In this document: positions 2,846-44,180 of the stretch, one piece after another | Position numbering within the stretch: position 1 is the stretch's first letter | Layout of the letters: each line of letters starts with the position of its first letter | Assembly: GCF_964355755.1 (NCBI RefSeq) | Contig: NC_092670.1 | Span: 26,832,795-26,896,794, forward strand | Reading direction: 5' to 3' | Length of the DNA stretch: 64,000 nt | From: Antedon mediterranea | Lineage: Eukaryota; Animalia; Echinodermata | The notes under the pieces: model-generated | Seen by the model: the letters and a program-made list of their open reading frames with translations, nothing else | What the model was told of the DNA's origin: nothing | Database searches by the model: none | Made by a program: the position numbers and the translations under genes

Positions 2846-3018
2846 ATGTAAGAAAAAAGTGTATCCTCCTGTTGATAAACTTCCAGATACAAGTGTTGTC
2901 ATTGTGTTTCATAACGAAGCTTGGAGCACCCTGTTAAGAACAGTACACAGCATCATAAATAGATCACCACGGCAACTTATCAAACAAATTGTACTTGTTG
3001 ATGATGCAAGTGAAAGAG
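2846..3018 (+). CDS. GALNT1: GALNT1-like exon (start of GT-A catalytic domain)
   Basis: ttcag|A TGT AAG..; [57 protein letters not shown]; G|gtagga. The phase-1 end joins AT TTC at 36449 (Asp-Phe). Confidence 0.95.
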
Positions 3019-9000: not shown

Positions 9001-12000
9001 TTGATCACGAGTTCGTATATCATTTAGAATATCTGTGTTAAACCATGGATCTGACCTTTGTTTCACCCTCATCTTTCTAAGGGGTGCCACACAATTTATG
9101 ACGGAGCTAAGAGCTTCCTTAAATGACGACCATGCGTCGTTAACATTAACTTTAGATGTAACGTTTGTCCAATCTATTTCGGACAGTTTTGACAGGAATT
9201 CCTCTTTGTTGTACTGTTTAAATGATCTTGAGTAAATGGTCTTATGCGATGAGTATTTTGCTTTACAAGATTTGCGTGTGCAAAATATCAGCATATGATC
9301 ACTTAGGCCTGTGTTTATAACACCGGAATTAGAAATTTTGTCTTGAGAATTACATAGGATATGGTCTAAACATGAGGATGAATTCCTGTCAAAACGAGTG
9401 TCTTCACTTATCAAGTTAGAGAATCCTAGTAATTCGAGAACGTTTTTATAATTCGTAGATTGAGTACAATCTCTGTTAGTATTTATGTTAAAATCACCAT
9501 TTATGATGGTTTCAAGGTTGTTAATTTTATTTACAGTGTCTTCGAAAAAGTTTAGAAAATTGTTGACATTCTGTTCAGGAGGACGGTAATAGGTTCCAAC
9601 AACGATTGGTTTTGTATCCGGGAGGTTGAGTTCAATCCATACTGATTCAACATTATTGTCCATTAAATCTTCTCTCTTGGTAAACGCTTTGTCCGTACGC
9701 ACATACATACATACTCCACCTCCTCTACGAGAAGATCTATCATTGCGAACTAAGGTATATCTATCTATGTTTACTTCATTATCAGGAACAGTCTCATCTA
9801 GCCAAGATGGATATAACTGCTGCCTTTGATTTTAATGCGATTTCCCTTATTTCAGATATTTTGGGAATCAGCGATCGTACATTAAGTTGAAGAAAATGCA
9901 TTCCTTGTTTGTTAATTGTTTTTGCGATGTCGTCCATGTCATCGTCTAGGGGATCAATCTGATTAGCGTCAGATACATCTTGGTTCTGATTTTCATGAAA
10001 GTCTGCATCATACCATGGGAGCGAGTTCCAGGAGCATATATCGCAAATATAAGAGGATGACTTACCGGCGCACTTTGTATGTATTGTTTTAATGTCGCAT
10101 GCATTGCATCTGATGATTTTACTTCGCTTGTTAAATCCTCTACTGCATACGTCGCAATATGACTTTTGTTGAGGTCCAGGATTTAGGGAGACATCCCCAG
10201 CAATAATGATCAAGTAACTTAACGTTAAGTGGTGATGTTTTCTTAATATACGTTTTACAGGATATCTCGAAGAGCTTGCACCGTACATTTGCCAGAGTGG
10301 TGATCTCAAATCCAAGTTATCCTGCTTAATGTGGGTAGGTGCTGACCAGTTGCTTGCGATGTCAGGTCCGACTTCAGTGAAGTCTAAAGTCGGTTGACTT
10401 AGGGTGCATATTCTTACTATGATACATAGTAAATGGATGAATAATGTTCTAAATTGTACTTTATACTGCATGATGATGAGCAAAGTAGGAAATACGTTGT
10501 TTTATGTTAAAAATGTAAGCATTCAAAGGCAAGCGTTTCATCGGTTGTCACGATACAAAAAACAAAATTACAGTACGACCAACAGTAACTGTAAATATTA
10601 TTGTTGTGATAATCCGCACTAGTTTGTTTTGTAAAAAAAATATCCAAACAGCCAATGATTTAGATGAGGAGAGTGAACCTAGGCCTAGTCAAAAGACTAA
10701 ACGTAACGTACCGTATGGTGGTAAGCACAATGCTTGGCGTCCCTGGTTACCGGCGTTAGCAACAAACGTATAAAAAGGCGCGAAAGGCCTAGCTGATCAA
10801 AGTGAAGAAAATGATATAATCCTAACTCACAGCTTGTAAATTAAAACAGTTTTCTTCAATCAATATTTGTTGCTGTATCGATATGTCAGTTATTTAACTG
10901 TTGGTATATCCAAAAATCAAGAAAATGAATTTTAAAAGACAATCAGTGTAGAGGGAAAATTAACTACGTCTACACACACGTGTATGGATTTTATAAACGG
11001 TGGTAATTATGTCTACAAACGACCAAACAATCCTAGGCCTTGCAAGGCTAAAACGAATAGGCCTATTCTAATACAGTACTAACAGGCCTAGGCCTAACTA
11101 GGTTGCAGCAATACGAAACTTTGACAAGCAACTGGAACTAATATAATATGTAGGCTAATTATGTTTTTCCAACGATTCCACGTCTTGTAGGGATGTCCCC
11201 ATTGATTAATCAAAATCATAAAAACGATCTACACAAAAGTATACTGCTGATGCATATCTCGGTGGTGTTTACAAACAAAACAGAGGCAAGACAACAGGTG
11301 GCTCTGTTGTATTTAACAGTAATAAACGATAGTTTAATAGTGCATACTATTGCATGCCATGTGACCCACAATCGTCTAATCAAATGACAGGAATTTATTT
11401 AGGTGTTAGATAATAGAAGATAGCATTCTATTGTATAATATAGTATTAATTATGTTTAATGTTAAATGAATAATAATAGATGGTAATTGATGGTAGCCAC
11501 ATTAACCTTACTCCATGCATTATATTAACTTTTCCTTTATATATGGGGTTTTGTTATAATTAATTAATAAACTATTTATAACTTAACATTTAATGTTTAG
11601 TTATATCAGCATAAATAACTCCACTGATTTCAGTGGACATGGAAGTTTTTGCTGTGTTCATAAAATCTAAGTCTGCATACATTAATCCTTGTGGGTCAAC
11701 ACACTTTGATCTTGAACCATGTGGTGAAACTTTTGACATGGCTAACTTTTTTGAATGTTTTTTTTAACATGAGGATGATCCTTATCTCGAGGCTTGTCAG
11801 AAATGTTCTCTTGCAGTTTCTTATTAGATTCATTTTCTGGTATGTTCTTTGAAATATCATCATTTCCATCAATTGCAGATTCTCTACTATGGTTAACATT
11901 TTTTTTCAGTTTTTTAGGTTTTGTGTCTGGTGCGTTTTTAGTTTTGATACTTGCAGGTAATGTAGAAGCCTTGTTCTTTTGTATACAAGCATATATATCT

Positions 12001-15000
12001 CCACTTGGGCTTTTCCAGTGATTAACTTGGTTTTCACTGGTTTCTGTTTTAATCGCTACTGTTGTGTTAACTCTCTTATCTGATGTCTGTTTGTGTATTT
12101 CTACAGGCGCATACATTGGAATCTCCTCATGTTCAGGTAATTTATTCTGATCAATATTTTGTTTTTCTGATAGGTTGTTAACTTTCTGAACTTTAGCGTA
12201 CATAGGAAATACATCAAGAGTGTATTGCTGTTGATTATTAAGTGATCCTGATGTAGTTATATTTTTCATATTCAGTTTATCTTCAGTGATATTTGGTGTC
12301 TGTTTATATTTACAATATAAATGGAATCCAAAAAAGCCACAAATTGTAATGATTATGATTACTACTACAATTGCTATGGGTATATAAAAACTAGTTGTTT
12401 TCAAAGTTTTCTGAACTTTATCTTGGTGTTGATTAGTTGAATGAGTTGAATATGTTTGAGTAGCAACTGGTTGAGTCATAGGCATTGTTAATCCATCAAC
12501 TACTTTAATTACTATTTTTCCTGAACCACTCTTTGAATCAAATGTTGCTCTACATTTTAACACCTTCCCATTATCTATCAAAGAAATGCTTGCAAAGCAA
12601 CGTGTATTGCTTCTTTGTGAGTGTAAGAAAGATGATGATCCATTGTATTCCCAAGTAAATTCTATTAGACCAGCACATGTGTCACATGTTACTATGCATT
12701 GAAAACATCCCTCACTTCCAGAAATAATTGGCATTGTATTTTGCGTAAAAACAACTACCGGTAATGATGAAGTTTCTTCTTTAACAATATTCATTAGATT
12801 TGTTGAACATGATTCTGCTTGTCCACCTTCTAAGGATGATGCTATACATGTAAAATAATTATTTACATTTTTACTTGCCAGTATTGTTATATTAAGGTAA
12901 CTTTTTTCTGTTGATTGAGGAAATGTTGCAGAGTTAAGGAATCCTTCAGAGTCAGATTTGTACCATGTAAGTCTTGTATCATGATTGCCTGCTCCTATCA
13001 TACATGAAAGTGCAATTCTTTCAGTCAATGTAACTGTTTTCGGCAAATCCATGCATCTTGGCTCAGGAACTTTTTTGACAATAAGTTTTGCTGAACTTTG
13101 AATTCCTGTTTTCTGAAGAACAAGACAAAGAAAAATTCCTGCATCAATATGCTTCACATCAGTAATCCTCAAAGTTGTGGTAATATACTTACCATCACCA
13201 GGCTTAAATGTGAATGTTGTGTCAACTGTATACTTGTTATTGTTTATTTCCATTCTATTGCCATTAGAAATGTACTGTTCACTTGAATACCATCCAACAG
13301 TGTATGTAAGCTCTTCTTTTACATTTTTATTCATTTTGATTATACAGTTGAACGTTGCCTCCTCACCTGCAGAAGCTACTACATCTACAGGATCTTTAGT
13401 TATTACTGCACATTTTACAACTTGAAAATAATTCATCAGATAAAAAAACAAGAAAGTACAAATGAACTTTAGTTGAATCATCTTCCCACTGTTATTAAAA
13501 GTCTGGTTAGAGAGTTAGATCTCTTGTGTTATTATTCTTGTCAGAAAACATACATGAATGATTTTCAATACATATGAGCACTGTGCTATACAGTAATGTA
13601 TTATACACAGAATGACTAGTAGCATTTAGACCATCCAGGAAACTTGTAAAGGAAATCAAGGTTTTAATATTTCCCAAGTGATTGTGTGTTATGTCTGGGT
13701 GATGAATTGTTATTGGTTACAGTATCAATGCATTGTCATTTGTTTATTGATATGAATAGTTTGTTTTTATACAATCAATAATTTTGTATTAGGCTACTGT
13801 AACACTACAGCCTCAAGTCTGGCACGACTCGCCGCGATTGAGATTTTAAGCCAGGTTTGAGTTTATTGAGCGGTCACACTATTCAAATTCTGTTGGGTTG
13901 TTCCCCGATCGAAAGCGGAAATCAGTTGGCTAGCTAAATTATGTGAGCCAAAAAGAACCAAACTCAAACAGAACTATATAAGAAGTACTGTAAATTAAGA
14001 AATGTAGTTCAAAGATCAGTCAAAAATGCAAAGTCTGAATTTTTCATTAACAAAATATCTCAATGTATTAATCTAATCCAAAAAAGTTATGGTCTACCTT
14101 AAGTAGCTTAGGTTACAAAAATAACTATAAACGTGATTCTAATCTAGTTCTCAAAAACGAAGGGGGTGAAATTTTACATGATCCCAAAGACATTGCAACT
14201 CGTTTTAACAATTATTTTGCGGATATTGCTAACAACCTTAAAAAAAACCTTCCTCCTAAGAAAAATTTATATAACCCACATTCAGCAAAATTTAAAAACT
14301 ATTATGATAAAAACCTAAAAGATTTAAACTTGAGCCTGTTAGTGATGATTTTGTACACGCTAAATTAATTAGATTAAATGTTAGTAAAGGTGCTGGCCCT
14401 GATGAAATTCCTGCTCGTTTCTTACGAGATGGGGCAGGTTTTCTCAAGCTTCCACTGACACATGTAATTAATGCATCAATTGTTAGTGATAATGTACCTG
14501 ATGACTTTAAACTGGCTAAATTTAAGCCTATTTTTAAAAAGGGGGATCGTACAGACCCCAATAACTATCGACCTGTTAGCGTTTTATGCACTGCTTCTAA
14601 AGTTCTTGAAAGGGCAACGTATATCCAACTAGCCAATCATCTTTTGAATGCTATTGAATTGAATTGAAATATATATTTATACTGGGTAACCTCTTCAGTC
14701 AAAGACTGGTCTCCCAGAGGGCCCAGTTGGTGATCAGTGGCTGTGATGTACTAATACACCGGGGTAACCCCCTACTCGTCTCGAAAGATGTACTAGGTTC
14801 TTTAAAGTGCACACGAGCTAGATGTGTACACTGGACCTACGGTTTATAGTCCTTATCCGAGAAGACTCGTTCTACCACCAGAACCATGGAGTGAGTGAGC
14901 CTCGAACCCCTGCCGATGTTATGGCTACGTGATTACGGTTCCACTGTCTTAACCGCTCGGCCACTCACTCACTAAAATCTTAAAAACAACAATCTGATAT

Positions 15001-18000
15001 ATAGCCTACAATCTGGCTTCAGAGAAGGTTTCTCAACTGAGACCTGTCTCATTCATCTCATCGACCATGTTAAATAAAAAATGGCTAATGGTCAACTTAC
15101 CGGGATGATTTTGTTGGACATACGTAAAGCCTTTGATTCAGTTAATCATGGTATTATATGTAAAAAATTGTATGATATAGGCTGGTTCCGGTCTTATTTA
15201 TCAGACAGAAAACAATATGTTGCTGTTAAGAATGCAACATCGGGTCATAATAGCATAGAACATGGGGTGCCACAGGGTAGTATTCTGGGCCCTCTACTTT
15301 TCTTAGTGTATATTAATGACATTGTTACATCAATTAATCCTGAATGTAAACTTTTTCTTTATGCCGACGACTGTGCTATTTTGTATAGCGATCCAAATCC
15401 TAATATTATTGAAGCTAAATTGAACGATTGTTTAAATAACTGCAATGACTGGTTAGTTGACAATGGTCTCACGATGCACGCTGGAAAAACTGAGAGTATT
15501 ATATTTGGTACTAAACAACGTCTAAACAATGTTAATTTTAAATTAAATGCATTAGGTCAAGACATTGTAGCCAGCAAAGTTATAAATTATCTAGGTGTAA
15601 AAATAGACCAACAGGCTTCTGGTGACCTAATAGCCAATTCTATAATTCATAAAATAAATAGCCGCCTTAAATTTTTGTACAGGCAAAATAAAAATCTAGA
15701 TAAAGTTAGTAGAAAACTACTATGTTCAGCTTTACTCCAACCGCTCTTCGACTACGCTGCCCCAGCATGGTGTTACGATGTATCACAGCCTCTAAAAAAT
15801 AAACTTCAAACTTCTCAAAATAAAATAGTTAGGTTTATTAATCAATCTAATGTTAGATCTCATGTTGGTCAGTCGGAACTTCAAGAATTAAGACTTTTAA
15901 ATGTGGTAAATAGGGTTAATTTTTTAAGTTTATGCTATGTTTTTAAGATTTTTAATGACACTGCTCCATTGTACCTAAATGAGCATTTTACACTTATCAG
16001 GGATTTTCATGAGAGGGTGACCAGAAGTAGCACTATGTGTAATTTCCGTATCCCAATAATTAAAGGATGTGCTAGCAAAACGGAACAATCTTCCTCTTTA
16101 TATCAAGAAATCGTCGAACATAACCTCTTTTAAACAGACTCTAAAATCATTGTATTTTTTAATTTTTTTAAAAATGCATTTTATACAAATTTTAAATATT
16201 ATACTTTTATACTTTTAAATATTTCGTATTTGACATTTTGGATTTTAACTGTTAATCTAATCTCTTTTTTGTATAAGGATTCTGTGCAATTTGTTTCTCT
16301 GTGTTTCTGGACCCCAGTGGAAATAAGTTTTTAACTTTTTGGGATATCCTTTTAACTCGAGTCTGTTGTACTGATTTTTAATTGTTTACATGTTTTATTG
16401 TTTGTATCTGTGTTGACTCGTTAATAAAGAAATCAATCAATCAATCAATCAATCTGTAGTACATACTTAGAATTCACTAGGCCTATGCATTTTGTTGTTT
16501 ATTGTAGATGATTTAAAATATATATGTAATCGACTGATGGTAAGCATAGGCATCCCATTCGATCCATGTTCGGTCACATTACAAAAATCTCAATTGCGGT
16601 GAGTCGCGCCAGGCTTGAGGCTGTAGTGTGACCGTAGCCTTGGTTTTCATTTACATACATTGTATTGAGAGTTTTTAAGTGCCAAATGATCAATTAATCA
16701 ATCAATTAATCATGCTTTTACAATTTATTTTTATAACAAAGGTTGATGAAGATTGTGATATAAATTTAAATTGAGCTAACCTAAGTAAGTAAGCCTGCCC
16801 AGGCCTAGGCGTAAAAGAATGAACATATAACGGAAAATAAATACTGATTAATGATTCCTTAGTACATTAACAGAAGAATTTCCATCAACAATTATATACT
16901 TTACAGTAATAAAATTACTAATAATTCTAATAATAATAATTTATCTTCTTTATCGAGCCAAATCGCCATATTTTCAGGGCGTCGCACGTACCAGGTTACT
17001 CCTGTGAGTGACCAATCACAAACGGTCTTTCAGCGCATCTATTAAGGGCTCATCATCAGCCCGGGAACGGGAGGGGTCAGGGATTAATTGTTATTGTATA
17101 TTGCACGCTCGAGCGTCGATGACCTGCTGCCCGGGGCGCTCTTTAATTGTTACTGTGTTTTGCATGCTCGATCCATTTTGGGAACGGCCGAGAAAAACCG
17201 ATCTCAGGGTTTGGCAATTTCAAGGAAATTTATCTAAAAAACACCTTTTTCGCATAAAGGGGAATTAAAAGGTGCCTCACCTTGCGGTTTAAGAGGAGAT
17301 AGAGGAACAAATTTTGGCTTAGTGCTATTATTTTATAGGCTATATATGTTTAACGTCAAACTAGGCCTATAGCTAGCGTATGATGTTCGTACGCTACCGC
17401 TCTTTACCAGCTAGGCCTACAAAACTAAGCCCAACTAAGCTACAGTAGTCCTAGAAACGTCTACGAGAGAACTTTTGACGCAAGCTACTACGGTAGTGCA
17501 TTGTTTAATGGTTTAATAAGTTGCATTAATTATTTTTACAAAACGTCAAAATTGCAGGTCAGTCTAGACATCGAGAGAAAAAGTACAGGAAGTAACTCCG
17601 ATCTGCACACTGCGAACATGCATCAGAGAGTGTGTTTTACAAGTATGACGTCATGAGCTCAGATATGCATCATGAATATTCATGATATATGCACGCCTTT
17701 ATATAATAATAATGCCTCCGGGCCAACTAGACTAGTGCAGTGAGAGGTGCCATTTTATCATGAAAATTATGTCGGAGAGTATACATTTCCAACGTTACTT
17801 TTTAAATATTTTTTTTAATAAAGCATATTTGATTTTACAATTACGGTACTAAAATAATGGATGCATGTATTTATATAATTCATAATATATGAATCAAAAG
17901 GCAAAGTTGGAATATTGCACACAGAAAAAGATTATGGCATAATATGACCTGAACTTTTTTAAAATTTAATTTAATTTTATTAAATCGAAACCAACAGCGA

Positions 18001-21000
18001 TAATTACCGCTGCTAACATGTTTGATACAAACAAAGCCAGGACTGTTTAAAGCACCTTGATTGGTCCTAACATTGATCAAGGGCTTCTCTTGTCCAGTGC
18101 CCCTTGACCAAAGGAAAGGCATAATCCAATACGTTTGAGGCAGATAGTAAATGCAGGGCTGCCATAAGAGTCAGCAGTGCTGATTTCAAATGCCTAACGG
18201 GACCCCAGCTCCATATACAGCACCCAATATTACCAGATGGTCTCCCATCCAAGCTCTAATCAGGTCCAACGTTGCTTAATTTCGGTGATCTGACCAGCGG
18301 TGGCGCCAGGATTTTCCCAACGAGGGGGCTAAGCGAGCGAAGCCAGCATTACTAGGCTGGGAGCAATGCGTCCTGCGTCATTTGAGGCCCTTTAATCAGA
18401 TTTAGGGTAGCCACTTTTTCCCTTTTTTATAATGCATAAATATAACACTGCATGCAAAAAAAAAATGATGCGCGATGAATGTTTTAATCCATATTTTTCA
18501 ATTTAAAAAATAACTGTTCAAAATATGCCTATAGTTTCTGAGTAAATTGTAGCATAGAAAAAGTAATCTACGCGAACGTAAAACATACCCACAGACGAAG
18601 AGGTAGGCCTATATTGTTTATCGCAGAGGCGTAGGCTGGTTGCCGTCTGGGGTGCAAAAATTGTAAATGCGAGGCTTGGGCTGATCTGTAAGAAAATTTT
18701 GAAAAATAGAGCTGCTAGGTCCCCGGAAGTTGAAATTATACATATTAATGATACTCTGAAACGAAATTACAAGTCTACAGAACCAGACAATGTAGGTTGG
18801 GATGGAGCTAAACAAATTTAGAGAAATAGAGTTAGAGGTACCGGAAATTGAACTTCAAAACATGAAACAAAATATACAATTCCATATCATGGTTGTGACT
18901 GAGCTATAGACATTTTTGAAAAATAGAGCCGTTAGGTCCTGGAAAATGCACTTATTGTACTTCGGAATATGACCAGCTTTATGGTTGGGGCTGAGCTAAG
19001 AAAATGTTTAAAACTAGAGCTGCAGGTCTTAAAAAAATTGCATCTCCTGGTCAATGGAACGTCGCAGTTTTCTGGGCGCTGAAGCTAAGAAGTGAACGCG
19101 AACAATTTTTACTGTAATATATTCCCCGACAAAAAGTACCAGTGTTCCCCGACGTGGGCTAGGCCCCCCAACGAGGGGGCTAGATCCCCCAACGAGGGGG
19201 CTAGATCCCCCAACGAGGGGGCTAGATCCCCCGCAGTACTGCAATGATGAAAATAATTGAACCAAGTTGTTCATGCTTATGAACATGATGGTGTCATCAA
19301 AATATAAAAGATGGTAAATCATCCAAAAGATAATTGATTGACCTAGACAATATCCAAATATTGAAGAAATTTAAATACGCATAAACAGAGATGCGCTCTA
19401 TTAAATGTGATGAGCTATGACGAAAGAGACAAAAATCCTATATTTTATATTTGGGTGGCCATACGATGACCTCACAATGTTAGCCATATTGATGCATGAT
19501 CCGATATCTACAACTCATCAATTTCTAGAATATGTAATAAAAATTAATTTTCCTGTGTACTTTAGAAACTATGACTGTGTTAAAAACAGACATAATTTTG
19601 ATGAATTTTGGAACTTTTTCATCAAAAACCGCAATAATTATCTAATTTGACGTGCTCGTAAGACATGATTTTAAGTCGAAATGGTTTCAAATTTTGTAAC
19701 ATTACTAGAAAAGGATAAAAATACATAAGTCATACAAAACATGTCTTTAAAGCTACGTGCGGACCGCGCACATTAAAATTTGCACGCACGCGGTTCTTTT
19801 TGAGATGCGCAAAATGTCATGATTTGTGTAGAAAGTTGATTATAAATTAATTTTGCGCATTTTAAAATTTTAAATGCGTGTGCACGCGTAACTTTGTGTA
19901 AAACATGCCATTTTTATTCAACAGAAAGTTGGCCCTTGATATCTATATATAAAATATGGTTAATTCTGACATAGGCTAGCACAATGCAAAAACTTTGGTA
20001 CAAATCTCCGCCTTGGATACCTACATTATCTATCTCAGATGTACTGCGAAACGTAGATTTGATAACATTAGTTTCACATTGACGCTATTGTTCCATATTT
20101 CTATCTTAGGAAGATATTATAAAGAGTTTTTTAACCCAATTTATGATTTCAACAGTAGATTTTCAACTCAATTTCAATTCTTCGCGGGTCAAAGTAATTT
20201 CCGGGTTCACCTTGCAACAACCTGGTTTCAACTATTTTCTCTCTTTTATACACAAGGGAGCAGTTAAAATAATAGATTTGACCCTAAAGGTGACTGGAAA
20301 CAGGCACTTTCCATCAATCAATACAGTGTCCCTTTGGAAGAAGGATGAAAAAAACCGATAGTAGGACTGGAGCTTAAGTTGCATAGCCATTTCAGTTTTT
20401 AGTTTATTTTAGGAACGGACCGCACGTGTGTGAAGGTACAGTAGTTAAAAAATTAAAATTATACTGCAAATTAATAAAGATAAAATTAAATATACGCCAT
20501 AAAGAATTGGAATATATTGTGGGAAATAGTATTATAAAATTACATAGGGAGATTTGATGATAAGACATTTTGTTTAAAATCGAGTGAAATCCTGATAGTT
20601 GATTGAATAAGCTGGCAGGAATAACTGTAGGCTATCTGTGTCCCGTTAGGACCGAGATGTCTGCCCATGTTGCAAGCCGTAATGTCTTCTTTCTTGGGCC
20701 CACTCTGTCACGGCACGGCAGTTAGTTTCAAAAGATGTTTAAATTAAATAATGTATTAATAATTATTAGGATGGTATTTATTTGAATAAACGCCTCTCCA
20801 ATAAAACTTTGAATAATAATCATTATACTCTTTGTAGTAGAATTCATCGCACTGTTATCTACAATTTACCAAGCATTTGTTATTCTTTTTTACCACTTTT
20901 CATCTATTAGAGGATTTCATTTGATTATAAATGTTACCATATTATTAAAACTAAAAAAATTAACATATATCCCTCGAAAAAAAGCACCTCCCTCAAATGA

Positions 21001-24000
21001 ACTCCGCCTCCCCAAAGGGCCCTACCAAACAATAAACACTATACTTTAAAATGTTATTAAAGCCCCATTCCCTACGTTTTTTAGATCTAATTTAAGATCA
21101 CAAACTATATTTAATGTAAAAATAATACTATATGGTCCTATTGCGATAACTTTTTTCGTCTTTAAACGGTTAAAAATGTGAAAAATACATCGATTCTAAT
21201 AATTATAGCGGCCCGCTATAAATCCCAAAATGCATTGCGCGCGGATTGATATTTTTGTTTTTCACCTGTAATTCGCCCACTTTTCGATCGATCGTGAAGC
21301 CAAAACAAATGGAAGACTCCTAACTTTTCAGCAAAAATATAGGGGTTTTCCCCAATTTGTATCAACGGAGTCTGGCAAAAATAGAAAGACAATTAATGCA
21401 GCAACTATACAACGTCAGGCTAGGTATATAGCTAGCGTACGATGTTCGTACGTTATCGATGTTTACCAGCTAGGCCTACAAAACTAAGCCTAGCTAGGCT
21501 AGGCCTAAGACCGTCCACGAGAGGTCGATCGCCGCGAGCTACTTAGGTAGTGCATTGTTTCTCACTTTTTATCATAATTTACCATAAAACGTACATTTAA
21601 GACAAGGAATGACATGGTTTAATGTTTTTAAAGTGATATATATGTATTATTTTCCAAAAAACGTCCAAAATTGCAGGGAAGGGGTCTTTAATCATCTAAA
21701 ACACTGTGAAACAGAGTAGTTTAGTTTTACGAATGTCAAGCATTTTCAATAATGGTAACCGACAGAAAACTTACAAGGAGAACATTTTTATCATTCCGAG
21801 AACCATCGTCTACACTTCCTAGAGGGGAGCGAGCGAAGCGAACTCACCCTTTAGTAACTAAAATTTTCACAAAGTGTCAATAAAAAATTATGTTTAGTTT
21901 TTAATGCTTGCGTAAGTCATGTTGCGCAACTCTGACGTCATTTAAAATAGGAGGTGCTCAACTTCACGTAAATGTCCATATGTTGACAAAAAATGTGACG
22001 TTTTTGAGATAAGCGAGACACAAAAATGACAGAAAGAAAGAAGAATAATACAGAAAAAAAAAGATGATGAAACAGGACAGTTACAAGGAGTTACGAAAAT
22101 AAAAGACGCTAAAGAAAAATTGTGCTGTATGAATTAGATGATGTGCGCAAACACATAATAAAAGTATAAAATGACAAACTATATTATTTTGGGTGTTTTT
22201 CGTGGTGCATTAATTATTTTGTACGTATATAAAATAAAAAGTATACAAAAATCAAATGAAAAACACATTATGCGGAAACACGAATTGTTAAATTTATTCA
22301 TTTACCGTACATTTTATGGTTTTTGATATTTTGCAATTTTTTTTGTATTGGAGATTTGTTACGTACTTGCTACTTTTGTAATTAAATTGTGGTCTGCCAG
22401 AAACCCGTGCTCCGCCCGGTTTGTCCACCTTAATAATAATTCGCATGGCATGATTAAGTATAATAAAAGCATACTTTTCCCGGCCACAATATTTCTCTTT
22501 CGTACATAAGTTGGGGCCCCCTTAATGAGACGTCACAAAATAAACATGAATATTCATTAATCATGTCCATAAGGTGTGACGTAAGAAATGAGCTAACTAC
22601 AATTCGCTAAAAAAAAAAATCACTTCCCCGCCCCTGACAAATTATAAAAAAAAAAAAATTGTCAACAATACAATTCGAAACTATTTACAGCCATTGATTT
22701 TGTTATACACGGAGTATTCGTCAGACTTTGACATCTGTAAGCTACAAAATGAAAGCAATACTGGATTTGGGGTGCGCCTCAGAAAGTGACAACATGCATG
22801 AGCGGGACAGACTTCAGCATGCACGTTGAAGTCTGTCAATCAGTCGGCAATGATTAAAACATTTTAATGATAAAATATGAATTGGCAAGTTATCGAATAA
22901 GATGGATTGGAATAATAATAATGCTTACGGACTCGGAAATCAACACAAAAAGTAGTCGAAATTAGATGATGCGCTCGGACACAAACATTTTGGGTGTATT
23001 TTTCATTGATATTTAATATTTAGTGGAAACACAACACCAATTTGGATTCGTTTTATTTGCGCGTTTGTTTTGTTGTTGTTAATTTACATTTTTTTATTTC
23101 ATGTTTTTTATATTTTGCAATATTTCTGTGTGAGGTTTCATATCTTTTTTGCTAGTTTTGTAATTAATTGTGGTCTAGTTTTGATTTTTAGCTTTAAGCG
23201 GTGATATTCATTAATTACACGGATTCCAACTCGAACGTACTAAACAGTGATATCTATGGCCACGGCATTTTACTCACTGGGGCAAACAGTGATTTACAAA
23301 AATCGTTCTGTTCAAAGAATAGGTGTAATTGATTAAAACTTCAACAACGCGATCATCCGATACGGTTGACTGGCTGCCAAGACTAAACAGTGTTTTAATT
23401 TGGTGGCCCTGCATGGTATTTTTAGATCCTTTGTAGCCTATCGTGTGCGGCCCATCAATAAACATCAGTGTGCCAAATGTGAGCACATACCGTTCAGTGT
23501 TTTTGGAGGAGATACGCAAAATATGCGAAAAATTTAGTAGCATGAATATATAGATATTTGTATTGGTCGAGAAGCAATAACACTGTTCTCTTACATGTAC
23601 CATTATTGTGTATGACTGAATATAATCCCATGCTCAAGTATAATCCCACCACCTAATTTTGGTCACAAGGCATTAGTAATGCAATTCGACACCCAAATTT
23701 GAAAGGTTAAGCTACCTTGTATACAATCAAAACAAGTAATAAAGGTGTGATAACTTAAATTTTGATCTGAAAAAGAAAAATCTCTGCTGTTTTTTTTTAT
23801 CTATATTATAATCCCATCATTGTCCACAAATTTTGTACCCATTATTACTTGATCATGGTACTCGCATTGAGTTCATATTAAAATCTCTAATTTCTAAGAG
23901 TTGTGTCAGTGAAGACTCAAGCCTCAGGTTTTGATTAACACACTGTTACTAGTGTTAGTGATAAAACTTTTAATTGGCACATGCTAACTATATTGTTTAG

Positions 24001-27000
24001 TTTAGTTGTTTAGTTTATACACGTCATAAGTTTATTGTACTATTATTTTAGAATACATCTGTTTATTTAGCATTAGTTCACAGTCTTCTAATCTCTGCAT
24101 ACTGTGTTATTTCTGTAGTTGGTTGTGTTATACTATTTCCACAATTCAGTAAATCCAAGTCAGCATACTGTAACCCCTCAATGTTTAATGTCCTTGCTTC
24201 TAATGGAGTAGACAGGGTAGCTGATTTAGTTTTCACTTCTGGTTCCATTGTAACAATAGGGCTTGGGGTTTCTGCTTTGTTTTTTATATCAACATTTATA
24301 TATGTGGTTTCCTTTGCTTCTTTATTTTCTCTGGTATTGTGTGCTTCATTTAAAGCTCTCATTTCAACTAAGTTTTTCTTCATTCTTCTTTGATCCAAAG
24401 ATAGTGCTTTAGACAATGGCTTCATTGTTAATCTAGGCTTGACTTTTTGAGTTTGAGATCGATTTATACCGCCATACATGATATTTTCCAGATCTGTCAT
24501 TTGCAAAGATGTTTGCACTTCATGAACACTATTCTTGATAGTATCTTGTTCTAAAGTGGATGCCCGATGTTTAAAGTTTAGTGTATGAATTTTATCTGGA
24601 CGTGTTGAAATGGAAATTTCAGCAGAAGTTTCTTCGATTGGAACATTGTCATAAAGACTAATTCGTTGATTTTGGTATTCTGATTGGTCATTGCAAGTGT
24701 TAATTTCATCATTAATTTCTACTAGGCCTACTGGTTTTAAATCAATTGTACAGTTATTGGTAATATTTTTTCCTTCAATGTCTGGTTTTATACAATTATC
24801 TTTTTCATTCTTATTTATATTTCTTTGTTTCTTTATACAATAGAGAAGAATTGTTACAAGACATACCATTAAAAGGAAAAGACTCATAACAATCACAATA
24901 TAAAGGAAAGCAGAGTTAGTTCCAAATATGGGATTTGGTGTATCATCCGTAGGACTAGAAGTAGTAAATAATACATTTACTATTGTTTCTGTACTCATCC
25001 TAAGCTGTGAAGAATCCGTACCACTCCTACCTCCATGTTCGACTGTACAATTAACTGCCTCTCCAGCATTGAATGTTGATACATTGCCAAAGCACTGGAT
25101 AAAGTCATGAAACCGTGGTAGTGGATTATCCAACAAAGAGGACCATGTATATTTCATTTCTACATCTTTTAGATTTTCTTTCACAAGACACTCAAAACAT
25201 GCCACATCACCAGGACTTATTGGATTCTGTTGTTGAACACTAACATTCAAATATGAGGTCAATGTCTTTGTGACTCTAGACGTGCAAGACACAAAATCAG
25301 ACTTATTCTTGTTAACATGAGTGGCCTTGCATTTGAATGTCCGTCCTTTATCACCTGCTTGAACTGTAAATGTGTAATTCAAAGTGAACTTTCTTCCAAC
25401 CACTTTCTGATTACCTTCAACTAACCTCAATTGATTGTCTTCCACTATCCGTGACCACCAGTTTAGCTCAATAGAATGTGATAGTTGCTTTGCTGTACAT
25501 GCAATTGTAACATTTTCTCCAATTATCACTTCTGTTGGTATCTTGCTACAACGAGGTCTGGGAATTGATTTTACAACTGTAATGTGTGCAGATGTTGCCA
25601 CAGATAGATGGTCGTCAGAACGTAAATAACACATCAATATGCCTGCATCAGTTAGTTTAGCTTTTCTAATTTTCAGAATGCTAGTTTTATAATAATACAG
25701 TGTATCTTCTACAATGGTTACATTGATTGAATATCGTTTCTTTTCAAAGTATAAGTCATTTCCAAGAGCAATAAATATGCTGTCTCTCTCCCATGCTAGT
25801 TGGTATTGTTTTTCAGTTTCTTCCAGTTTGACAATGCAGATAAAGTTTGTAGTCTCGTCCTCTGTTATTTCAGTATCTTCTATACCATGAGTTATCTCTG
25901 CACATTTAACATTCTCAAATACATACAAAATTGAAATAGTTAACATCCAAACCTTACCAAACTTTTTCTGCAGCCACATATCTTTAAAAAAGAACAAATT
26001 ACAACATAATATACTGTTGGTGAAAGACTTTATATTATTATACATTACTTACTTACTAACTCACTAAAGATATTATATTTGTTTCAACTGTTTCAAATTC
26101 AGTAGTTCTACTCAATATTAACTACAGTGAAGTAAGGTAGTAGTAACCATAACCTATTATGCAATTATTTTAAAGTTTCTTTCTGTCTCTGAATTTAATT
26201 ATAATACCTACTTGTTATATTGTTGAAACTATTCCCCAACTTCAAACAGTGCTTTAAAGTTGTACAAATTGGTTAATGATTATTTCACAGTAATGTAAGT
26301 CTGTGCTAATTCCTGAAAGATGATGTAATTGTTTGGATAACTTTCACTAGCTTCCTGGCTTTGATTTTGATAACTGTTAATACAATGAGATTTACAGCAC
26401 ACTGAGGAAGTTAGGATGAACACCCATGGGTACCAACCATCAGACAATCAAATCATAGTTATTCTTCAAATATAAATAGAAATAATTGTCAGCTGAGAGG
26501 AGGCTTTAAAGTTGTAATTTTTTCACACAATTGTTTAACCATCAGGCCTGAAAACACAATTGTTTATATGTTGCCCAACCTGACTCACCTAGAATTTGTA
26601 AAAACTGTCCTGGGCTACCTACTTTTAGGCCCTATTGATGTTTAAATTATTATTGATAAAAAGTAAAACAGACACTTTACAACTCTACGGTTACACTGTG
26701 CTTATCGGGAAATCAAATACTTCAGTTTCTGTAAAAATCAGTGAACTAGTGCCATACATGTCTTTTTAAAAAAATGATTAAAGTGTATCAAACATTTTTT
26801 TAAATCCTGAATAATATTTTTTTATTCGATGTATAAAGTATTATGAACACAGCATCATAATTGTATATCATCTTGATAAAACACAGTCATACATCAGCAT
26901 ATATTTAGAATATATATTTATTGATAAATAACTTACAAACATCATCAAATTAATTGATCAAAGTAGTTTACTACAGCACACAGAATACCATAATGTAAAT

Positions 27001-30000
27001 GTGCACTGGATATTTTGCTTTCAACTTTTAAAGTATGGCCCACTCTGATATGCTTGAGAATCAGGTGTGTTCTTGAAAATAAACTTCATAAAGAACATGT
27101 ATGATTGATTTTTGTATTTCACCAAAAGAAAATCTGATCACGAGTTTCTTGGACAGACCACAGTTGATGGTCCCATGCATCGTCAGTATTTGACGACTAC
27201 ACTGAATCTTTTTGTATGGAATGGAAGACGTGTGTCATTTAAATCAATAGTTTCAAGCCCTAAGATTAAAAAGGTTTCACATTTATACATTGCCGATTAC
27301 AATATAAAAGATCTATGGTTAGGCTTAAGCCTGGCTTTAATCTAAGACCTGGAGAAAGTCTCAGTTAAGCCTGCCGACTAGGCTATTTGATACATTATCC
27401 ACATAGCCAGTCGGCAAATTGGGAGTCGGCAAACTGCAGTCGGCAAACTGGGAGTCGGCAAACTGGCCTAGATCCATCAATAGGCTGCAGAATCACCACA
27501 CACACACATACTGACACAACCCATCGCTTGTCACACCACAGGGGAACGTTTTGAGTGTGATATGGTTGAGTGATTCCATCGCGTCATCACATACGTCATA
27601 CTTCTAGCTACTTCGTGGGTCTCAATAGACAAGTCTCACAAAGCGCGAACATTTCTAGTAAACACACTTTTTAAATAAATTTAAAAAAAATATGAATGTC
27701 ATTTTTTTTCAGTGGCTGGATCTCAATGGAGATACAAAAAAAGGCGAAAAGCTAAATCAAAACGATAAAGTAAAACAGCCAGAAAAGTTGGCAGAGCTTT
27801 CGGGCAACATTAGCCCTTCATCAGTGCAATTGGACAAAGATAGATATATAAAGTCAGGCAAGTGCTGCCTGAGTGGACAGGAATAAAAGAAATAAAACAA
27901 AAGAGGCACAGGCTGATGAATAGAGGGTGGAGTTAGTATTGGGTAGAAAACAAAGAAGATAGCTTGGTATATCGTAAACAATTTTGGAATAAAATTTTTT
28001 AAAACAGCTTAAATGGTGGTTAATATTGAAACTTAAATTTAGGTAGTAATTTTACCAATCTGGGAGTATGTTCCTAATGTTACGTCCAAAAGGTTTTGTC
28101 GTTTAAATTGATATGCCCTCATCTTTCAGTATTTTATTCATAAAGCAGGATTTCCGAAGAGATACTTTTATATATATATATAAACACATCAGGCACAGAA
28201 GGACATTAATTCTAAACCGCCCGGTGATATACTGAAATTTAAATAATTAATTTGAAACGATAAAGATAAGGAAATCCGTGAGAATGAGAAAATCTGTGAG
28301 AATAAAAAAAAGTCCCCCCAACGTAGACTCGAACCCGGAATATCTGCTTGATATGCAGATGTCCTAACTATTAGACCACTGGGGCTTTCATGGTATTGTT
28401 CAAACGCGATTAGATAGCGACTCTTCCACATTCTCGGCGTAGTACAGCGGAACAACACTAGTCCCTCAATTGTATGCACGCACACCAGATCAAATTGCTA
28501 AGCCTTCATCTTTCAGCATTTTATTTTTTGAAGCGGAATCTTCGAAGAGATATATATATAAATAATAATAATAATGTGTTTATATATATAAAAATGTGAA
28601 ATTCAGCCATATCTTTTAGCATTTAAATGATCATCAAGATCGTTTGTAAGTAAATTATGAATTAGCGCCCACACACTTGAAATTGAAAAGGAAAGATATG
28701 CTTTCTCCGGATACCACCGGAATTACGTCTGCCAAATGTCAGCATGTACTACCATTCAGCGGTTTCAGAGGAATACGTACAATTACACAACCAATTTAAT
28801 AGCATTAATATATATAGATAACATCTGTTTATTATTCATTCCATGCCAGTAGTTGTATATAATTGAAAGAAATCCTTTTGATATTCTTATAAATATTTAA
28901 ATGTTTTATTCATTGTAGTGACATTGTAGATTAATTTACTCCTGGATCCCATCAATTCTAACTTGATTTAAACAAATATACACTTCTCTTGCTTATATAG
29001 TGGTATTTCTATATATTTGTGTATGTAATGAAATTATTGTTATCCAGTTCCTAGTCAATTATCAAACCATAGTTTGAAACAACTATTATACATTTATTTT
29101 TGACAAAAAGTTTTTGATGATATTCCAACTTCCCCACTATACCCAAACTGCCAAATAAACTAAACATTAGAGGACGAATACAATATGAATGCAAATCAGC
29201 TTTGATGGATAACAATACCTATCAATAAACTGTAAAAGCACTATCCTTTATTCACATTTCCAAAATTACAAATAATTTTCTGATGAGTGCTTGTCTCACG
29301 AATCTGAAATCTGTAATACTGTAAATGCATTTCACTGGTTTTTTTGTTGTCTTTTTTACATTTATTGTCTCTATATAATTGTTTGTTAGCTTACAGTATA
29401 CAGTATATTTCAACTACAATGTGGTGGTCTGAGCTGAAGGTGGAGGTTCCCATCCGTCATCTTTATAATATATATCATTTTCAGTTTGAAGTACAGAGAT
29501 ATCAAAATTGTTTGGTAAAAAATTAATATCAAGATGATTAACAACCATGTCACCTTTTACTTCATTCTCTACACTAACGTTCTTGTAATATTCCATGCGT
29601 GCACTTAGATTTTGTTCAGATGGCTGTTTTTGATGGCCTGTTCGTAAGCAAATTATTAAAATACAGATGCTAAGCAGTAGAAAGATTGAACCACAAACTG
29701 CAGCAATTATGATAACCATTGTATCTACTGATGTAGATTCTTGTTTTTCTGATTTGGCAGTAGACATAGCTGGATTTGATGTGATTTCATTCCATGCTAC
29801 ACTGGTGATTTTAGGCATTATTGCAGTTGTTCTAATAGCTTGTGTTGCTACCTTCGATATTTGCTTCCGAGCTTTCGTTGTGGGTAAGCTTGTAGGTGTA
29901 GTCTGTGCTAAAGTTGTAATTGGAGTTGATAATGTTAGTTTAATTGATTTTCTTTCTTCTTGAGTACTTGTGGCCACTGTACAAATTAAGTTTAAACCAT

Positions 30001-33000
30001 CGTAGCTAGCCTGAACATTGTGAATCGTCAAAGCACTACCATCAATATTATAACTGATTCCTGCATCTTGAAATGTCCATGCATACGATGTAACAGTGCC
30101 ACTTGACACAAGGCAAATAAACGTTACATCTTGGCCTATAACTGCTATTTCAGGTGTTTGCATTATCAAAAGATTTAAAGGACTTTCAACCAATAAGTTT
30201 ATCATACAAGCCTGAACATTATCTAATGTATTTGAAGTCTGACATATATAAGAAATAACACCTTCTGTATTAGGAACTGTCAGTACATAGTTCAGGCTTA
30301 AAGGATTGTTTGTATTTTGACTGTTAGTTGAAATGATATTTCCATCTATTGACCACATCATTTCTATTAGCGGATCTGCAGGGTCTGAATCACATCGCAA
30401 TGTTATTATGTCATCAGGCTGCACAATCGTTTTCTCTGGTGTATAACACATTGGTGTGGGAACATAATTCGTAATGTACAGTCTTGTAGAGGCTTTGACA
30501 TTAGTCTCTTGACCATTTAAAATAAAAGTACATTGATACGTTCCTAGATCATTTTCACCAACCTCTAGTATTAGCAATGTTTGTGTTATTGAAACATTTT
30601 GAGTAACAGATAATCCACTTAGTGCATACTTTATTGTATCACCGTTTGTCACAGAATCACTTGAAGCAATTTCAATATTGTCATTTTTAGTCCAATGTAT
30701 GCCATGTGGAGTAATAGATTCATCAGAAGTTAATGTTAACGAACATTCAAGGAATCCACTCGAAGACATATTTACAGTCACATGATCTGGAAATGTTATT
30801 TCAGCAGAAAACACATTGTTTCCTATACCAAAAAGAACAAATAAGAATAGCCATGATGAACTCATCCTGTTTGTATTTTTCACAAAAATATTCACTTTAT
30901 ACATTTTCTGCTGAAAAACAAAAGTAATACTGGAGTTAGAGTTTGTATCAGATTAAACTTTAGCAAAATTTGGTTTATGATACAGAATTTAAGTACAACT
31001 TTAATGCAAGAAAAAACTAACTCGGAGAGTGCACTTATGTTGAAATTAAACAGAAGGAATAATTTTCTAGGATGGTATGTACAGTAAGGTAGTTACAAGG
31101 AAACTGTACTGTGACATGATACAAAAATATATGTTATATGGTTCAATTTTCTACAATTCAAAACAGCTTACCTTATATTTCTGGAAATATTTTGTGTTAT
31201 TTTTTATACAATTCGAGAAAATTCTTGTGTCATGTTGGAATTGTCTGTATCACCTACACACTAGTACCAAGTTTGTTATACCTGAGTGGGCTTCAATAGA
31301 GGTAGTATTTAATCATGAATAGTCTATTATTCTGCTGATTGTGTTTACCTAGGCTATAGACTCCCCTATTCATAGTCGTAATCAGATGACTGTTGCTTTT
31401 ACGCTTAGTACTTTTCTTTTTGTTGTACAGTTGAAAAGTTTTTTTAATACTTTGCAGGAACTATAAAACAATATGTACTTGAAATTGCTTTTTGAAGATC
31501 TAAAACTATAGTATTATCAAACCAAACAAAATCACTGACAATACATATAGCATGGCATAGATTATTTTTTTTAACAAATTAATGAAAAATTAGTACCCTT
31601 GTTGAGCCGTGAAATGTGCAAAAAGTCAAAGTGCAAACAACCGCAAACTAAAACACAATGATGTCCCGCCGGATGCAATTAGACATACTGTATTTTAGGT
31701 TCAAGGTAAGTAATTGAGTATTATGACCTGAACTGAAGAATATGATATGTTGTTAGGGCTGAATTCTGTCTATTTTGTGTCATATACTATATACAGTATG
31801 CACATTATAATCTTTATACATACTAGAGGGTGAGCTCACTTCTCTCGCTCCCCCTTTAGGAAGTGTAGACGATGGTTCTCGGAATGATAATGACTCGGGT
31901 AAAAAAGGTTTTAGGAGGACGTTCTCCTTGTATGATTTCTGTCGGTTACCATTATTGGAGATGCTTGACATTCGTAAAACTAAACCTACTCTGTTTCACA
32001 GTGTCTTAGATGATTAATAACATTTTAAAGTATAGTGTTTATTGTTTGGTAGGGCCCTTATAGAGCAGAGGTGGGGAGGCGGAGTTCATTTGAGGGTGGT
32101 GCTTATTCGAGGGATGTTGAATTTTTTAGTTTTAATAATATGGTAAATAGTATAATTGTGTTATTATAAATATAATACAATAGTATGTGTAATGTGGATG
32201 GGCGTTTATTAGATAGTTGGGTTTTATTGATGTTTTATTGGGGAGGCGTTTATTCAAATAAATACCATCCTAATAACGAATACATCATTTAATCTAAACA
32301 TCTTTTGAAACTAACTTCCTTGACAGAGTGGGCCGTTTCAGCCCAAAAAAGAAGATGTTTTAGACGGCTTGCAACATTGGCAGACATCCCGGTCCTAATG
32401 GGACACAGATATCCTATACTAACAGTTATTCCTACCAGCTTACTCAATAAATCTTGGCTATCGGGATTTCCCTTGATTTTAAACAAAATGTCCTATCATC
32501 AGATCTCCCTATGTAATTTTATAATACTATTCCCCACAATAATATTCCGATGCTTTATGGCATATATTTAATTTGATCTTTATTAATTTTTACTTTTTAA
32601 CTACTGTACCTTCACACGTGCGGTCCGTTCCGAAAATAAACAAAAAACTAAAATGGGTATAGCCACTAACGTAACGGCCAACTTAGTTGAAACCAGGTAG
32701 TTGTAAGTTGAACTCATCGTGAACCCGGAAATTACTTTGACCGGTACAATTGAAATTGAGTTGAAAATGTACCGATGAAATCAGGAATTTTGTTTAAAAA
32801 CTCTTTATAATATCTTCCTAAGGTAGAAATATGAAACAATATCGTAATAGTGAAAACTAATGTTATCAAATTTACATTTCGCGGTACATCTGAGATAGAT
32901 CAGGTAGGTATCCTAGGCAGAGATTTGTACCTATATGTCAGAATTACCCATAATTTATATACTGTAGATTACAAGCAGTGTAAAATAGGTGAAATTACGG

Positions 33001-43834: not shown

Positions 43835-44180
43835 TAAATGTGATGGTTCATTAAACCAAACATGGAACCTTGTATGAATATACCTTACAGCTCCTATACG
43901 ATAATAAATGTGATGGTTCATTAAACCAAACATGGAACCTTGTACAGATAGACCTTTATACAGCTCCTAAACAATAATAAATCTGATGGTTCATTACACC
44001 AAACATGGAACCTTGTATGAATATACCTTACAGCTCCTATACGATAATAAATGTGATGGTTCATTACACCAAACATGGAACCTTGTATGAATATACCTTA
44101 CAGCTCCTATACAATAATAAATGTGATGGTTCATTACACCAAACATGGAACCTTGTATGAATATACCTTACAGCTCCTAT
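43769..44180 (+). repeat. ~70-bp tandem repeat, about 6 copies, starting inside the last GALNT1 exon
   Basis: Units start at 43769, 43839, 43909, 43982, 44052, 44122 (TGTGATGGTTCATTACACCAAACATGGAACCTTGTA..CAGCTCCTATACGATAATAAA). Confidence 0.95.

Follow-up and report, generated by a model that had tools for sequence, protein, structure and literature searches.

Three probably KirrelL-like immunoglobulin receptor genes nested in a GALNT intron of the crinoid Antedon mediterranea, one with a conserved tyrosine-motif tail

Results

Three receptor genes inside one host intron

The DNA analyzed here (the window: 64,000 nucleotides of Antedon mediterranea contig NC_092670.1, forward-strand positions 26,832,795 to 26,896,794) carries on its plus strand a GALNT1/13-like GalNAc-transferase gene, one intron of which harbors three minus-strand open reading frames (ORFs). 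These ORFs encode immunoglobulin (Ig) receptors and are the subject of this report. The main elements of the locus, in window positions, are the following.

2846..3018, plus strand: host GALNT1/13-like exon 5' of the long intron, supported by an in-frame join, a GALNT1 match and a RefSeq model
3019..36448, plus strand: host GT-AG intron of 33,430 bp, with the three receptor ORFs inside
36449..36656, plus strand: host GALNT exon 3' of the long intron, with more exons after it up to about 43834
11742..13481, minus strand: ORF1, 579 amino acids (signal peptide, three Ig domains, stalk, transmembrane helix, tail), with LOC117102757 as its Anneissia counterpart
24078..25979, minus strand: ORF2, 633 amino acids (signal peptide, three Ig domains, stalk, transmembrane helix, tail of about 250 residues), ortholog of Anneissia LOC117102760
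25982..26000, minus strand: acceptor-like pyrimidine tract plus AG, 2 bases before the ORF2 ATG, the predicted end of an intron in the 5' untranslated region (UTR)
29414..30904, minus strand: ORF3, 496 amino acids from 30904 or 483 from 30865 (signal peptide, three Ig domains, long serine/threonine-rich stalk, transmembrane helix, tail of about 80 residues)
30911..30930, minus strand: predicted acceptor-like pyrimidine tract plus AG, 6 bases before the first ORF3 ATG

All three ORFs have the layout of type I membrane proteins with three Ig domains. The best Pfam Ig matches have E values of 4.6e-11 (ORF1), 2.2e-9 (ORF2) and 1.1e-16 (ORF3), and each protein contains a 19-residue hydrophobic helix (Kyte-Doolittle 2.9-3.2) followed by a tyrosine-bearing tail. 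The AlphaFold model of the ORF2 ectodomain, built on a 16-sequence alignment, consists of three Ig folds with a mean predicted local distance difference test score of 86.7; the full-length model, built on a 4-sequence alignment, is poor beyond the ectodomain. Reading frames, Pfam matches, hydrophobic helices and the ORF2 model thus bear out an earlier, sequence-only reading of this DNA, which had proposed that the three ORFs share the order signal, three Ig domains, stalk, membrane helix and tyrosine-bearing tail and are coded without interruption. A six-frame scan of the window with hidden Markov models found no remnant of a fourth Ig receptor copy. All five proteins of the nested type have a predicted mature start of the form A-x-I-T.

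The coding region of each ORF is uninterrupted, and it is for the coding regions that the term intronless is established. Each of the three ATGs is preceded within a few bases by an acceptor-like pyrimidine tract and AG, which makes introns in the 5' UTRs likely. We therefore regard these as single-coding-exon genes that probably have 5' UTR introns.

The nesting itself is well supported. Exons 2846-3018 and 36449-36656 join in frame and correspond to GALNT1 residues 19-73 and 75-143 of PDB entry 1xhb, with the junction residue alone between them. Moreover, every exon of the RefSeq protein XP_071966120.1 (Antedon mediterranea) is identical to the window, and this model makes the same join across the intron, in which no GALNT exon was mapped. 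The possibility of two separate GALNT genes on either side of the cluster was rejected on these last two grounds, and the proposed splicing of exon 2846-3018 to 36449 across a 33.4-kb intron stands. The intron measures 33,430 bp versus about 290-2,810 bp for the 8 other mapped host introns, a comparison in which four exon ends are approximate.

Conservation in Anneissia japonica

ORF2 has a single close relative among 5.8 billion clusters, the protein LOC117102760 of Anneissia japonica, a crinoid of a different family (Comatulidae versus Antedonidae), which is 61% identical over the ectodomain. A profile-free search of 1.84 billion representatives returned 68 matches, including LOC117102757, 41% identical to ORF1. 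Both pairs are recovered in the tree, with support of 100/99 for ORF2 and LOC117102760 and of 97/99 for ORF1 and LOC117102757. Identity between ORF2 and its ortholog is 61% in Ig1, 65% in Ig2 and 59% in Ig3. No Anneissia counterpart of ORF3 was found in the homolog and profile-free searches; a homolog search with the ORF1 and ORF3 alignment returned the window's own ORF1 model alone, and of 78 pattern matches in metagenome contigs, none was confirmed as a relative.

The scaffolds of LOC117102757, LOC117102760 and the Anneissia GALNT gene are all 263,083 bp long, and the three accessions are nearly consecutive (XP_033099054/056/058). Both counterparts thus apparently share a scaffold with the GALNT gene, and the linkage would therefore be old. 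The Anneissia GALNT model is partial and begins at the exon directly after this intron.

Tyrosine motifs in the tails

The cytoplasmic tails contain the following elements, among them two immunoreceptor tyrosine-based motifs, one inhibitory (ITIM) and one of the switch type (ITSM).

24156..24173, minus strand: ITIM LQYADL (Y605) of ORF2, identical in Anneissia
24090..24107, minus strand: ITSM TQYAEI (Y627) of ORF2, identical in Anneissia
11590..11763, minus strand: continuation of ORF1 in another frame, containing LMYADL and VIYADI at a tyrosine spacing of 22 and homologous to the ORF2 end

ORF2 ends with an ITIM followed by an ITSM, their tyrosines 22 residues apart. Both motifs are identical at 6 of 6 positions in Anneissia, whereas the preceding tail is 40% and the linker 38% identical, and a comparable terminal pair arises in 74 of 100,000 shuffles of the ORF2 tail. 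According to the consensus sequences S/I/V/LxYxxI/V/L for the ITIM and TxYxxV/I for the ITSM (PMC8631942), ORF2 and its ortholog carry both motifs, ORF1 matches only out of frame, and ORF3 does not match. Alanine follows the tyrosine in both ORF2 motifs, and an alanine at this pY+1 position favors SHP docking (PMC8631942). The suggestion of inhibitory-type tails thus holds at the level of motifs for ORF2, where these are clearly constrained, and for ORF1 only out of frame, but not for ORF3, whose tail contains no ITIM. We consider the conserved ITIM and ITSM pair of ORF2, as read from its sequence, the strongest clue to function at this locus.

Other tail elements were noted. ORF2 residues 507-545 (about 24345-24461, minus strand) form a basic segment, in part predicted to be helical, whose identity to the Anneissia sequence is 72%. 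The ORF1 tail (about 11985-12205, minus strand) has three in-frame Y-A-x-V/I motifs, PMYAKV, PMYAPV and DIYACI, which have the form of Csk- or SHP2-type sites. The last residues of ORF3 are T-T-L (29417), presumably a class I PDZ-binding end.

Position 11590 had been taken as the end of ORF1, but it belongs to the out-of-frame tail; ORF1 itself stops at 11742. The out-of-frame stretch aligns with the end of ORF2, including the 22-residue tyrosine spacing, and none of 5000 shuffles scores as high. The frameshift lies between 11766 and 11742, in a stretch containing runs of A8 and A6. We compared this region with contigs from the read data labeled X1 to X4, of which X1 comes from a single study, has no indicated strand and is RNA by guess. 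Contigs of X2 and X4 match the window gap-free, and one X3 contig has 6 gap letters. The X1 contig over 11379-13695 carries one extra base, which is the amount that would restore the ORF1 frame, the position of the gap within the contig not being displayed. The ORF1 frameshift is thus present in reads from one sample, while an allele encoding ORF1 at full length may exist.

Variation in ORF3

ORF3 varies more in its first two domains than elsewhere. Between the window and X1, 19 of 618 nucleotides differ in Ig1-2 versus 4 of 771 in the rest (Fisher p 2e-4), and 18 of the 24 listed changes alter the protein. The ratio of nonsynonymous to synonymous differences (pN/pS) in Ig1-2 is nevertheless below 1 (0.029/0.043, from 24 of about 29 X1 differences), and positive selection on ORF3 is not indicated by these 24 listed changes. 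The corresponding differences number 6 in 2,317 for ORF1 and 11 in 2,118 for ORF2. A second sample contains three variants of the ORF3 Ig1 region, deleted forms among them. The DNA runs of this sample also show deletion joints at 29992-30157, 30525-30575 and 30833-31406; one amounts to a net in-frame loss of 156 bp from Ig3, one causes a frameshift and one removes the start. The joints and variants likely reflect an extra, partly broken ORF3 copy. ORF3 is polymorphic and probably copy-variable in Ig1-2, its variants being alleles or paralogs.

Annotation and read coverage

The expectation that gene predictors miss nested genes was right in part. ORF3 is present in the NCBI proteins exactly, but ORF1 appears only as a 457-residue model without a signal peptide and with hardly any of Ig1. 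ORF2 was not found among the NCBI proteins in any of four start forms, nor by the homolog search. The truncated ORF1 model, the apparent lack of an ORF2 model and an Anneissia host model that is partial at this very place illustrate how annotation fails around nested genes.

Within 28900-31700, the X1 contigs cover 29132-30909 and end within two bases of the predicted ORF3 acceptor; neither 28900-29131 nor 30910-31531 is covered by X1, whereas the DNA runs extend through both. X1 also covers repeats and a noncoding piece at 16617-17322, and no spliced joint was seen in it. The X1 depth of 143 over ORF3 versus 12 over ORF1 was not taken as evidence of expression. Separate X1 contigs lie at 26224-26599 and at 16617-17322. 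The former has a donor-like GT close to its end, at about 26211, and is a possible 5' UTR exon of ORF2.

A likely link to the KirrelL-like family

The gene kirrelL encodes an Ig transmembrane protein needed for skeletogenic cell fusion in echinoderms (PMC8903837). It is without introns in all echinoderms examined in that study, where retroposition was already proposed. The supplement of the same paper (Figure 6 source data 3) provides 25 sequences of KirrelL, Kirrel2L, Hypp1164 and IgTM, which were compared with our ORFs over the first ~400 residues; their tails, which may bear on the novelty of the ITIM, lie outside this comparison. A search of the supplement for the motifs gave 0 matches within the ~400 residues covered.

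Among 16 aligned sequences, all 16 have an invariant junction between Ig1 and Ig2, P-x(1-6)-P-x-C, together with an extra pair of Ig2 cysteines, and 12 positions are invariant across all 16. This signature was matched by eye, residue by residue, in Sp_KirrelL, Aj_kirrelL and Sp_Hypp1164. The extra Ig2 cysteines are seen by eye in most of the other published sequences, and Aplc_Hypp1164 and Sp_IgTM are among those that lack one proline. Written as a pattern, the signature matches 22 of 78 proteins examined, 18 of which are three-Ig relatives that include all three ORFs. The three ORFs therefore likely belong to an echinoderm KirrelL-like family, as judged from these sequence features. They are not kirrelL itself: Aj-kirrelL lies at about 848 kb on NW_022748342.1, whereas the Anneissia orthologs of ORF1 and ORF2 are on a 263,083-bp scaffold, and the sequences differ.

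Crinoid relatives occur on several other scaffolds under names that include CADM-like, nephrin-like and syg-2-like. One of them, P0204, has Ig2, Ig3 and the transmembrane helix within 311 amino acids on a 1,112-bp contig, which leaves little room for introns. Four dispersed relatives (P0177, P0184, P0196 and P0202) have a common VYFEP motif near the membrane, and two of these carry an ITIM-like S-x-Y-A-E-V/I; three of the four are located on a single Antedon contig of 38.96 Mb, which hints at another cluster. The Ig2 signature also occurs in the long multi-Ig proteins P0136, P0161 and P0192 (943-2129 amino acids), which could represent a parent lineage with introns.

Other features of the window

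A second, divergent GALNT gene occupies 49176-63997 on the minus strand, tail-to-tail with the host gene, and is not involved in the nesting. A 70-bp tandem repeat of 5.8 copies at 43769-44180 duplicates the last ~21 codons of the host GALNT beyond its stop, most copies containing a stop. Broken remnants of long interspersed nuclear element (LINE) type lie at 8842-10501 and 50398-51021 (minus strand) and at 14072-16133 and 59244-59831 (plus strand), with an endonuclease preceded by a C1-like finger and a reverse transcriptase among their contents; two of their ORFs have an ALKBH8_N-type match and are probably reverse transcriptase tails. We rejected the nearby remnants as proof of retroposition, because they are broken and have no link to the receptor ORFs.

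Discussion

Origin of the cluster

The sequence-only reading supposed an unrecognised family, born by retroposition of a founder into this intron and followed by local duplication. The first part is not supported in that form: kirrelL is already known to be intronless, retroposition has been proposed for it (PMC8903837), and relatives of the nested genes are found on other scaffolds. Since the signature is shared with the KirrelL group and with dispersed crinoid relatives, the founder was probably already intronless, and the lack of introns is most likely older than the insertion. We propose that an already intronless member would have come into the GALNT intron before the Antedonidae/Comatulidae split and would have duplicated locally at least once, giving rise to ORF1 and ORF2 and possibly ORF3. 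Local duplication fares better in part, as the tree supports common descent of ORF1 and ORF2. These two form a group (94/92) that includes an Anneissia gene from a different scaffold, and they have in common two extra Ig3 cysteines. A purely local origin of all three genes is less clear: the approximately unbiased (AU) test rejects neither a clade made up exclusively of the genes in the intron (p 0.084) nor a placement of ORF3 with the dispersed group (p 0.083).

A contact receptor with a phosphatase-docking tail

The reading we favor, about evenly poised between right and wrong in our estimation, is that the nested genes encode KirrelL-like cell-contact receptors, of which ORF2, and the full-length ORF1 allele if it exists, would signal through an SHP2-type phosphatase. 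Ig1 would bind a surface ligand on another cell, and a Src-family kinase would, judging from the motifs, phosphorylate the two tyrosines 22 residues apart. The phosphotyrosines would then dock the tandem SH2 domains of SHP2, which would damp or redirect contact-triggered signaling in mesenchymal cells, be it fusion, engulfment or a growth-factor response. ORF3, lacking ITIMs and variable in Ig1-2, may act as an adhesion or ligand-type partner.

Several observations weigh against this view. In this haplotype, ORF1 carries a frameshift, and the tail of its Anneissia counterpart is short and differs from its own. ORF3 sits on a long branch and has no BLAST match to ORF1 or ORF2 at E 0.01, and its transcription is weakly hinted at by the ends of the X1 contigs. 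Membership in the KirrelL-like family comes from a by-eye signature defined after viewing the sequences and not from a tree with KirrelL; the corresponding pattern also matches three long multi-Ig proteins and one protein that is probably a chance match. Finally, the nesting in Anneissia is deduced from scaffold size and accession order.

An immune-type role, as originally suggested, may exist, but we consider it unlikely, if still worth serious attention, that the locus is a dedicated coelomocyte cluster for self/non-self recognition, in which ORF2 and ORF1 would be inhibitory receptors of SIRPalpha or Siglec type and ORF3 a fast-changing partner, decoy or allorecognition determinant. The conserved ITIM and ITSM of ORF2 would suit such a cluster, as would the excess of differences in ORF3 Ig1-2 (p 2e-4), the 18 of 24 changes that alter the protein and the three variants of the Ig1 region; moreover, ITIM-bearing Ig receptors are clustered in Hydractinia (10.1101/2022.03.04.482883) and Botryllus (PMC12582321). 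However, ORF2 is conserved 1:1, with Ig1 retained to much the same degree as the other two Ig domains, and between samples it differs by only 11 letters in 2,118. Furthermore, pN/pS in ORF3 Ig1-2 is below 1, the variants could be paralogous copies and not alleles, the genes number three and not dozens, and the tested relative, KirrelL, is skeletogenic and fuses skeletal cells.

A more doubtful possibility is that these are simply proteins for adhesion or fusion, of the KirrelL, nectin or Neph kind, whose tyrosines would bind the adaptors Csk, Nck or Grb2 without an inhibitory switch. The signature held in common with Ig proteins of skeletogenic cells and the best fold matches (Necl-4, Rst, SYG-1 and Neph1) speak for it, and both ORF3 and the Anneissia relative LOC117106493 lack an ITIM; yet the C-terminal order of ITIM then ITSM, the alanine at pY+1 and the fixed spacing in three tails suit a tandem-SH2 phosphatase better than single-SH2 adaptors. 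That the genes are decaying retrocopies with no present function, to which the ORF1 frameshift, the deleted ORF3 variants and the LINE remnants alongside might point, is highly improbable in view of open frames of 483-633 codons and the NCBI protein for ORF3, and is largely refuted for ORF2, whose ectodomain is ~60% identical to that of an intact ortholog from a different family and whose motifs are invariant.

Going beyond the contact-receptor reading, we speculate, with considerable doubt, that this is an echinoderm checkpoint locus, in which the intronless KirrelL lineage, whose one known role is the fusion of skeletal cells, would have independently evolved ITIM and ITSM receptors in the style of PD-1 and SIRPalpha, and ORF3 would be a polymorphic, copy-variable self-marker. 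If this were true, crinoid cells would choose between fusing with and attacking a neighbor through one receptor family.

For echinoderms, neither the intronless state nor the idea of retroposition is new; what is new is the conserved tail with ITIM and ITSM, together with the nested position and the variability of ORF3. A literature search, with subscription journals largely outside its reach, found no report of ITIM or ITSM Ig receptors in echinoderms, and a search for nested intronless genes found no paper. No description of these genes was found among literature listings and the beginnings of abstracts. The available part of a review of invertebrate Ig superfamily proteins mentions echinoderms once and no echinoderm ITIM receptor (PMC11999971).

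Comparison with known receptor systems

Fold comparison places adhesion receptors first (Necl-4, Rst, Dpr and SYG-1, Z 14.8-16), tied with many Ig proteins. Indeed, sequence and fold matches to solved structures tie at 10-18% identity over three domains with no family standing out, the tied proteins being Necl-4, IgLONs, DIP/Dpr, Rst/SYG, SYG-2, Robo, SIRP, CD22 and titin.

A terminal ITIM followed by an ITSM is reminiscent of SIRPalpha, PD-1, BTLA, the CD33-related Siglecs and PECAM-1, and SIRPalpha and CD22 are among the fold matches of the ORFs. Identity to the vertebrate ITIM/ITSM receptors is 13-17%, a level that titin and IgLONs reach as well, and the genes described here, unlike theirs, have a single coding exon. 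These receptors thus offer a working analogy, with no sign of orthology. As for the Siglecs, we assume their hallmark to be a V-set domain with an F-strand arginine and no F-strand cysteine; membership was rejected, Ig1 of all three ORFs having a canonical D-x-G-x-x-x-C F strand. The tyrosine spacing, 22 in ORF2, is 25 in PD-1 (Y223 and Y248; PMC7078208).

Among invertebrates, the Hydractinia Alr proteins are clustered type I Ig proteins, some of them ITIM-bearing, with up to three Ig domains, each domain having its own exon, most with an Fn3-like spacer and many without the core disulfide (10.1101/2022.03.04.482883). Like them, the genes reported here are clustered invertebrate type I Ig genes, and an Alr2 cluster stands at rank 11 (0.92) among the Atlas look-alikes of ORF2, which are generic Ig clusters. 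Membership was rejected, since here one exon encodes the whole protein and the canonical cysteines are present. Botryllus FcoR proteins likewise combine three Ig domains with ITIM-bearing tails in an invertebrate deuterostome, but they have a Sushi domain, multiple exons and dozens of paired copies (PMC12582321); with no Sushi match in Pfam and a single coding exon here, this membership was also rejected. The nectin/CADM (Necl) proteins resemble the ORFs in their three-Ig ectodomain, with Necl-4 as the top fold match, but differ in that the 13% identity ties with other Ig chains. We also see no C-terminal motif in ORF1 or ORF2 of what we take to be the nectin or CADM type.

The closest likeness is to the KirrelL relatives, which have the same order of signal, three Ig domains, stalk and single transmembrane helix and, as matched by eye, the Ig1/Ig2 junction motif and the extra Ig2 cysteine pair. 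Uninterrupted coding is common to the ORFs and kirrelL, the gene for which PMC8903837 states the intronless condition. The genes in the GALNT intron differ from kirrelL in being clustered and nested, in the ITIM and ITSM of ORF2, and, for ORF1 and ORF2, in two further Ig3 cysteines. Clusters of ITIM-bearing Ig receptors have been described in cnidarians, tunicates and vertebrates, and ORF2 is a conserved echinoderm candidate; its coupling to SHP2, if true, would tie a skeletal fusion family to inhibitory signaling.

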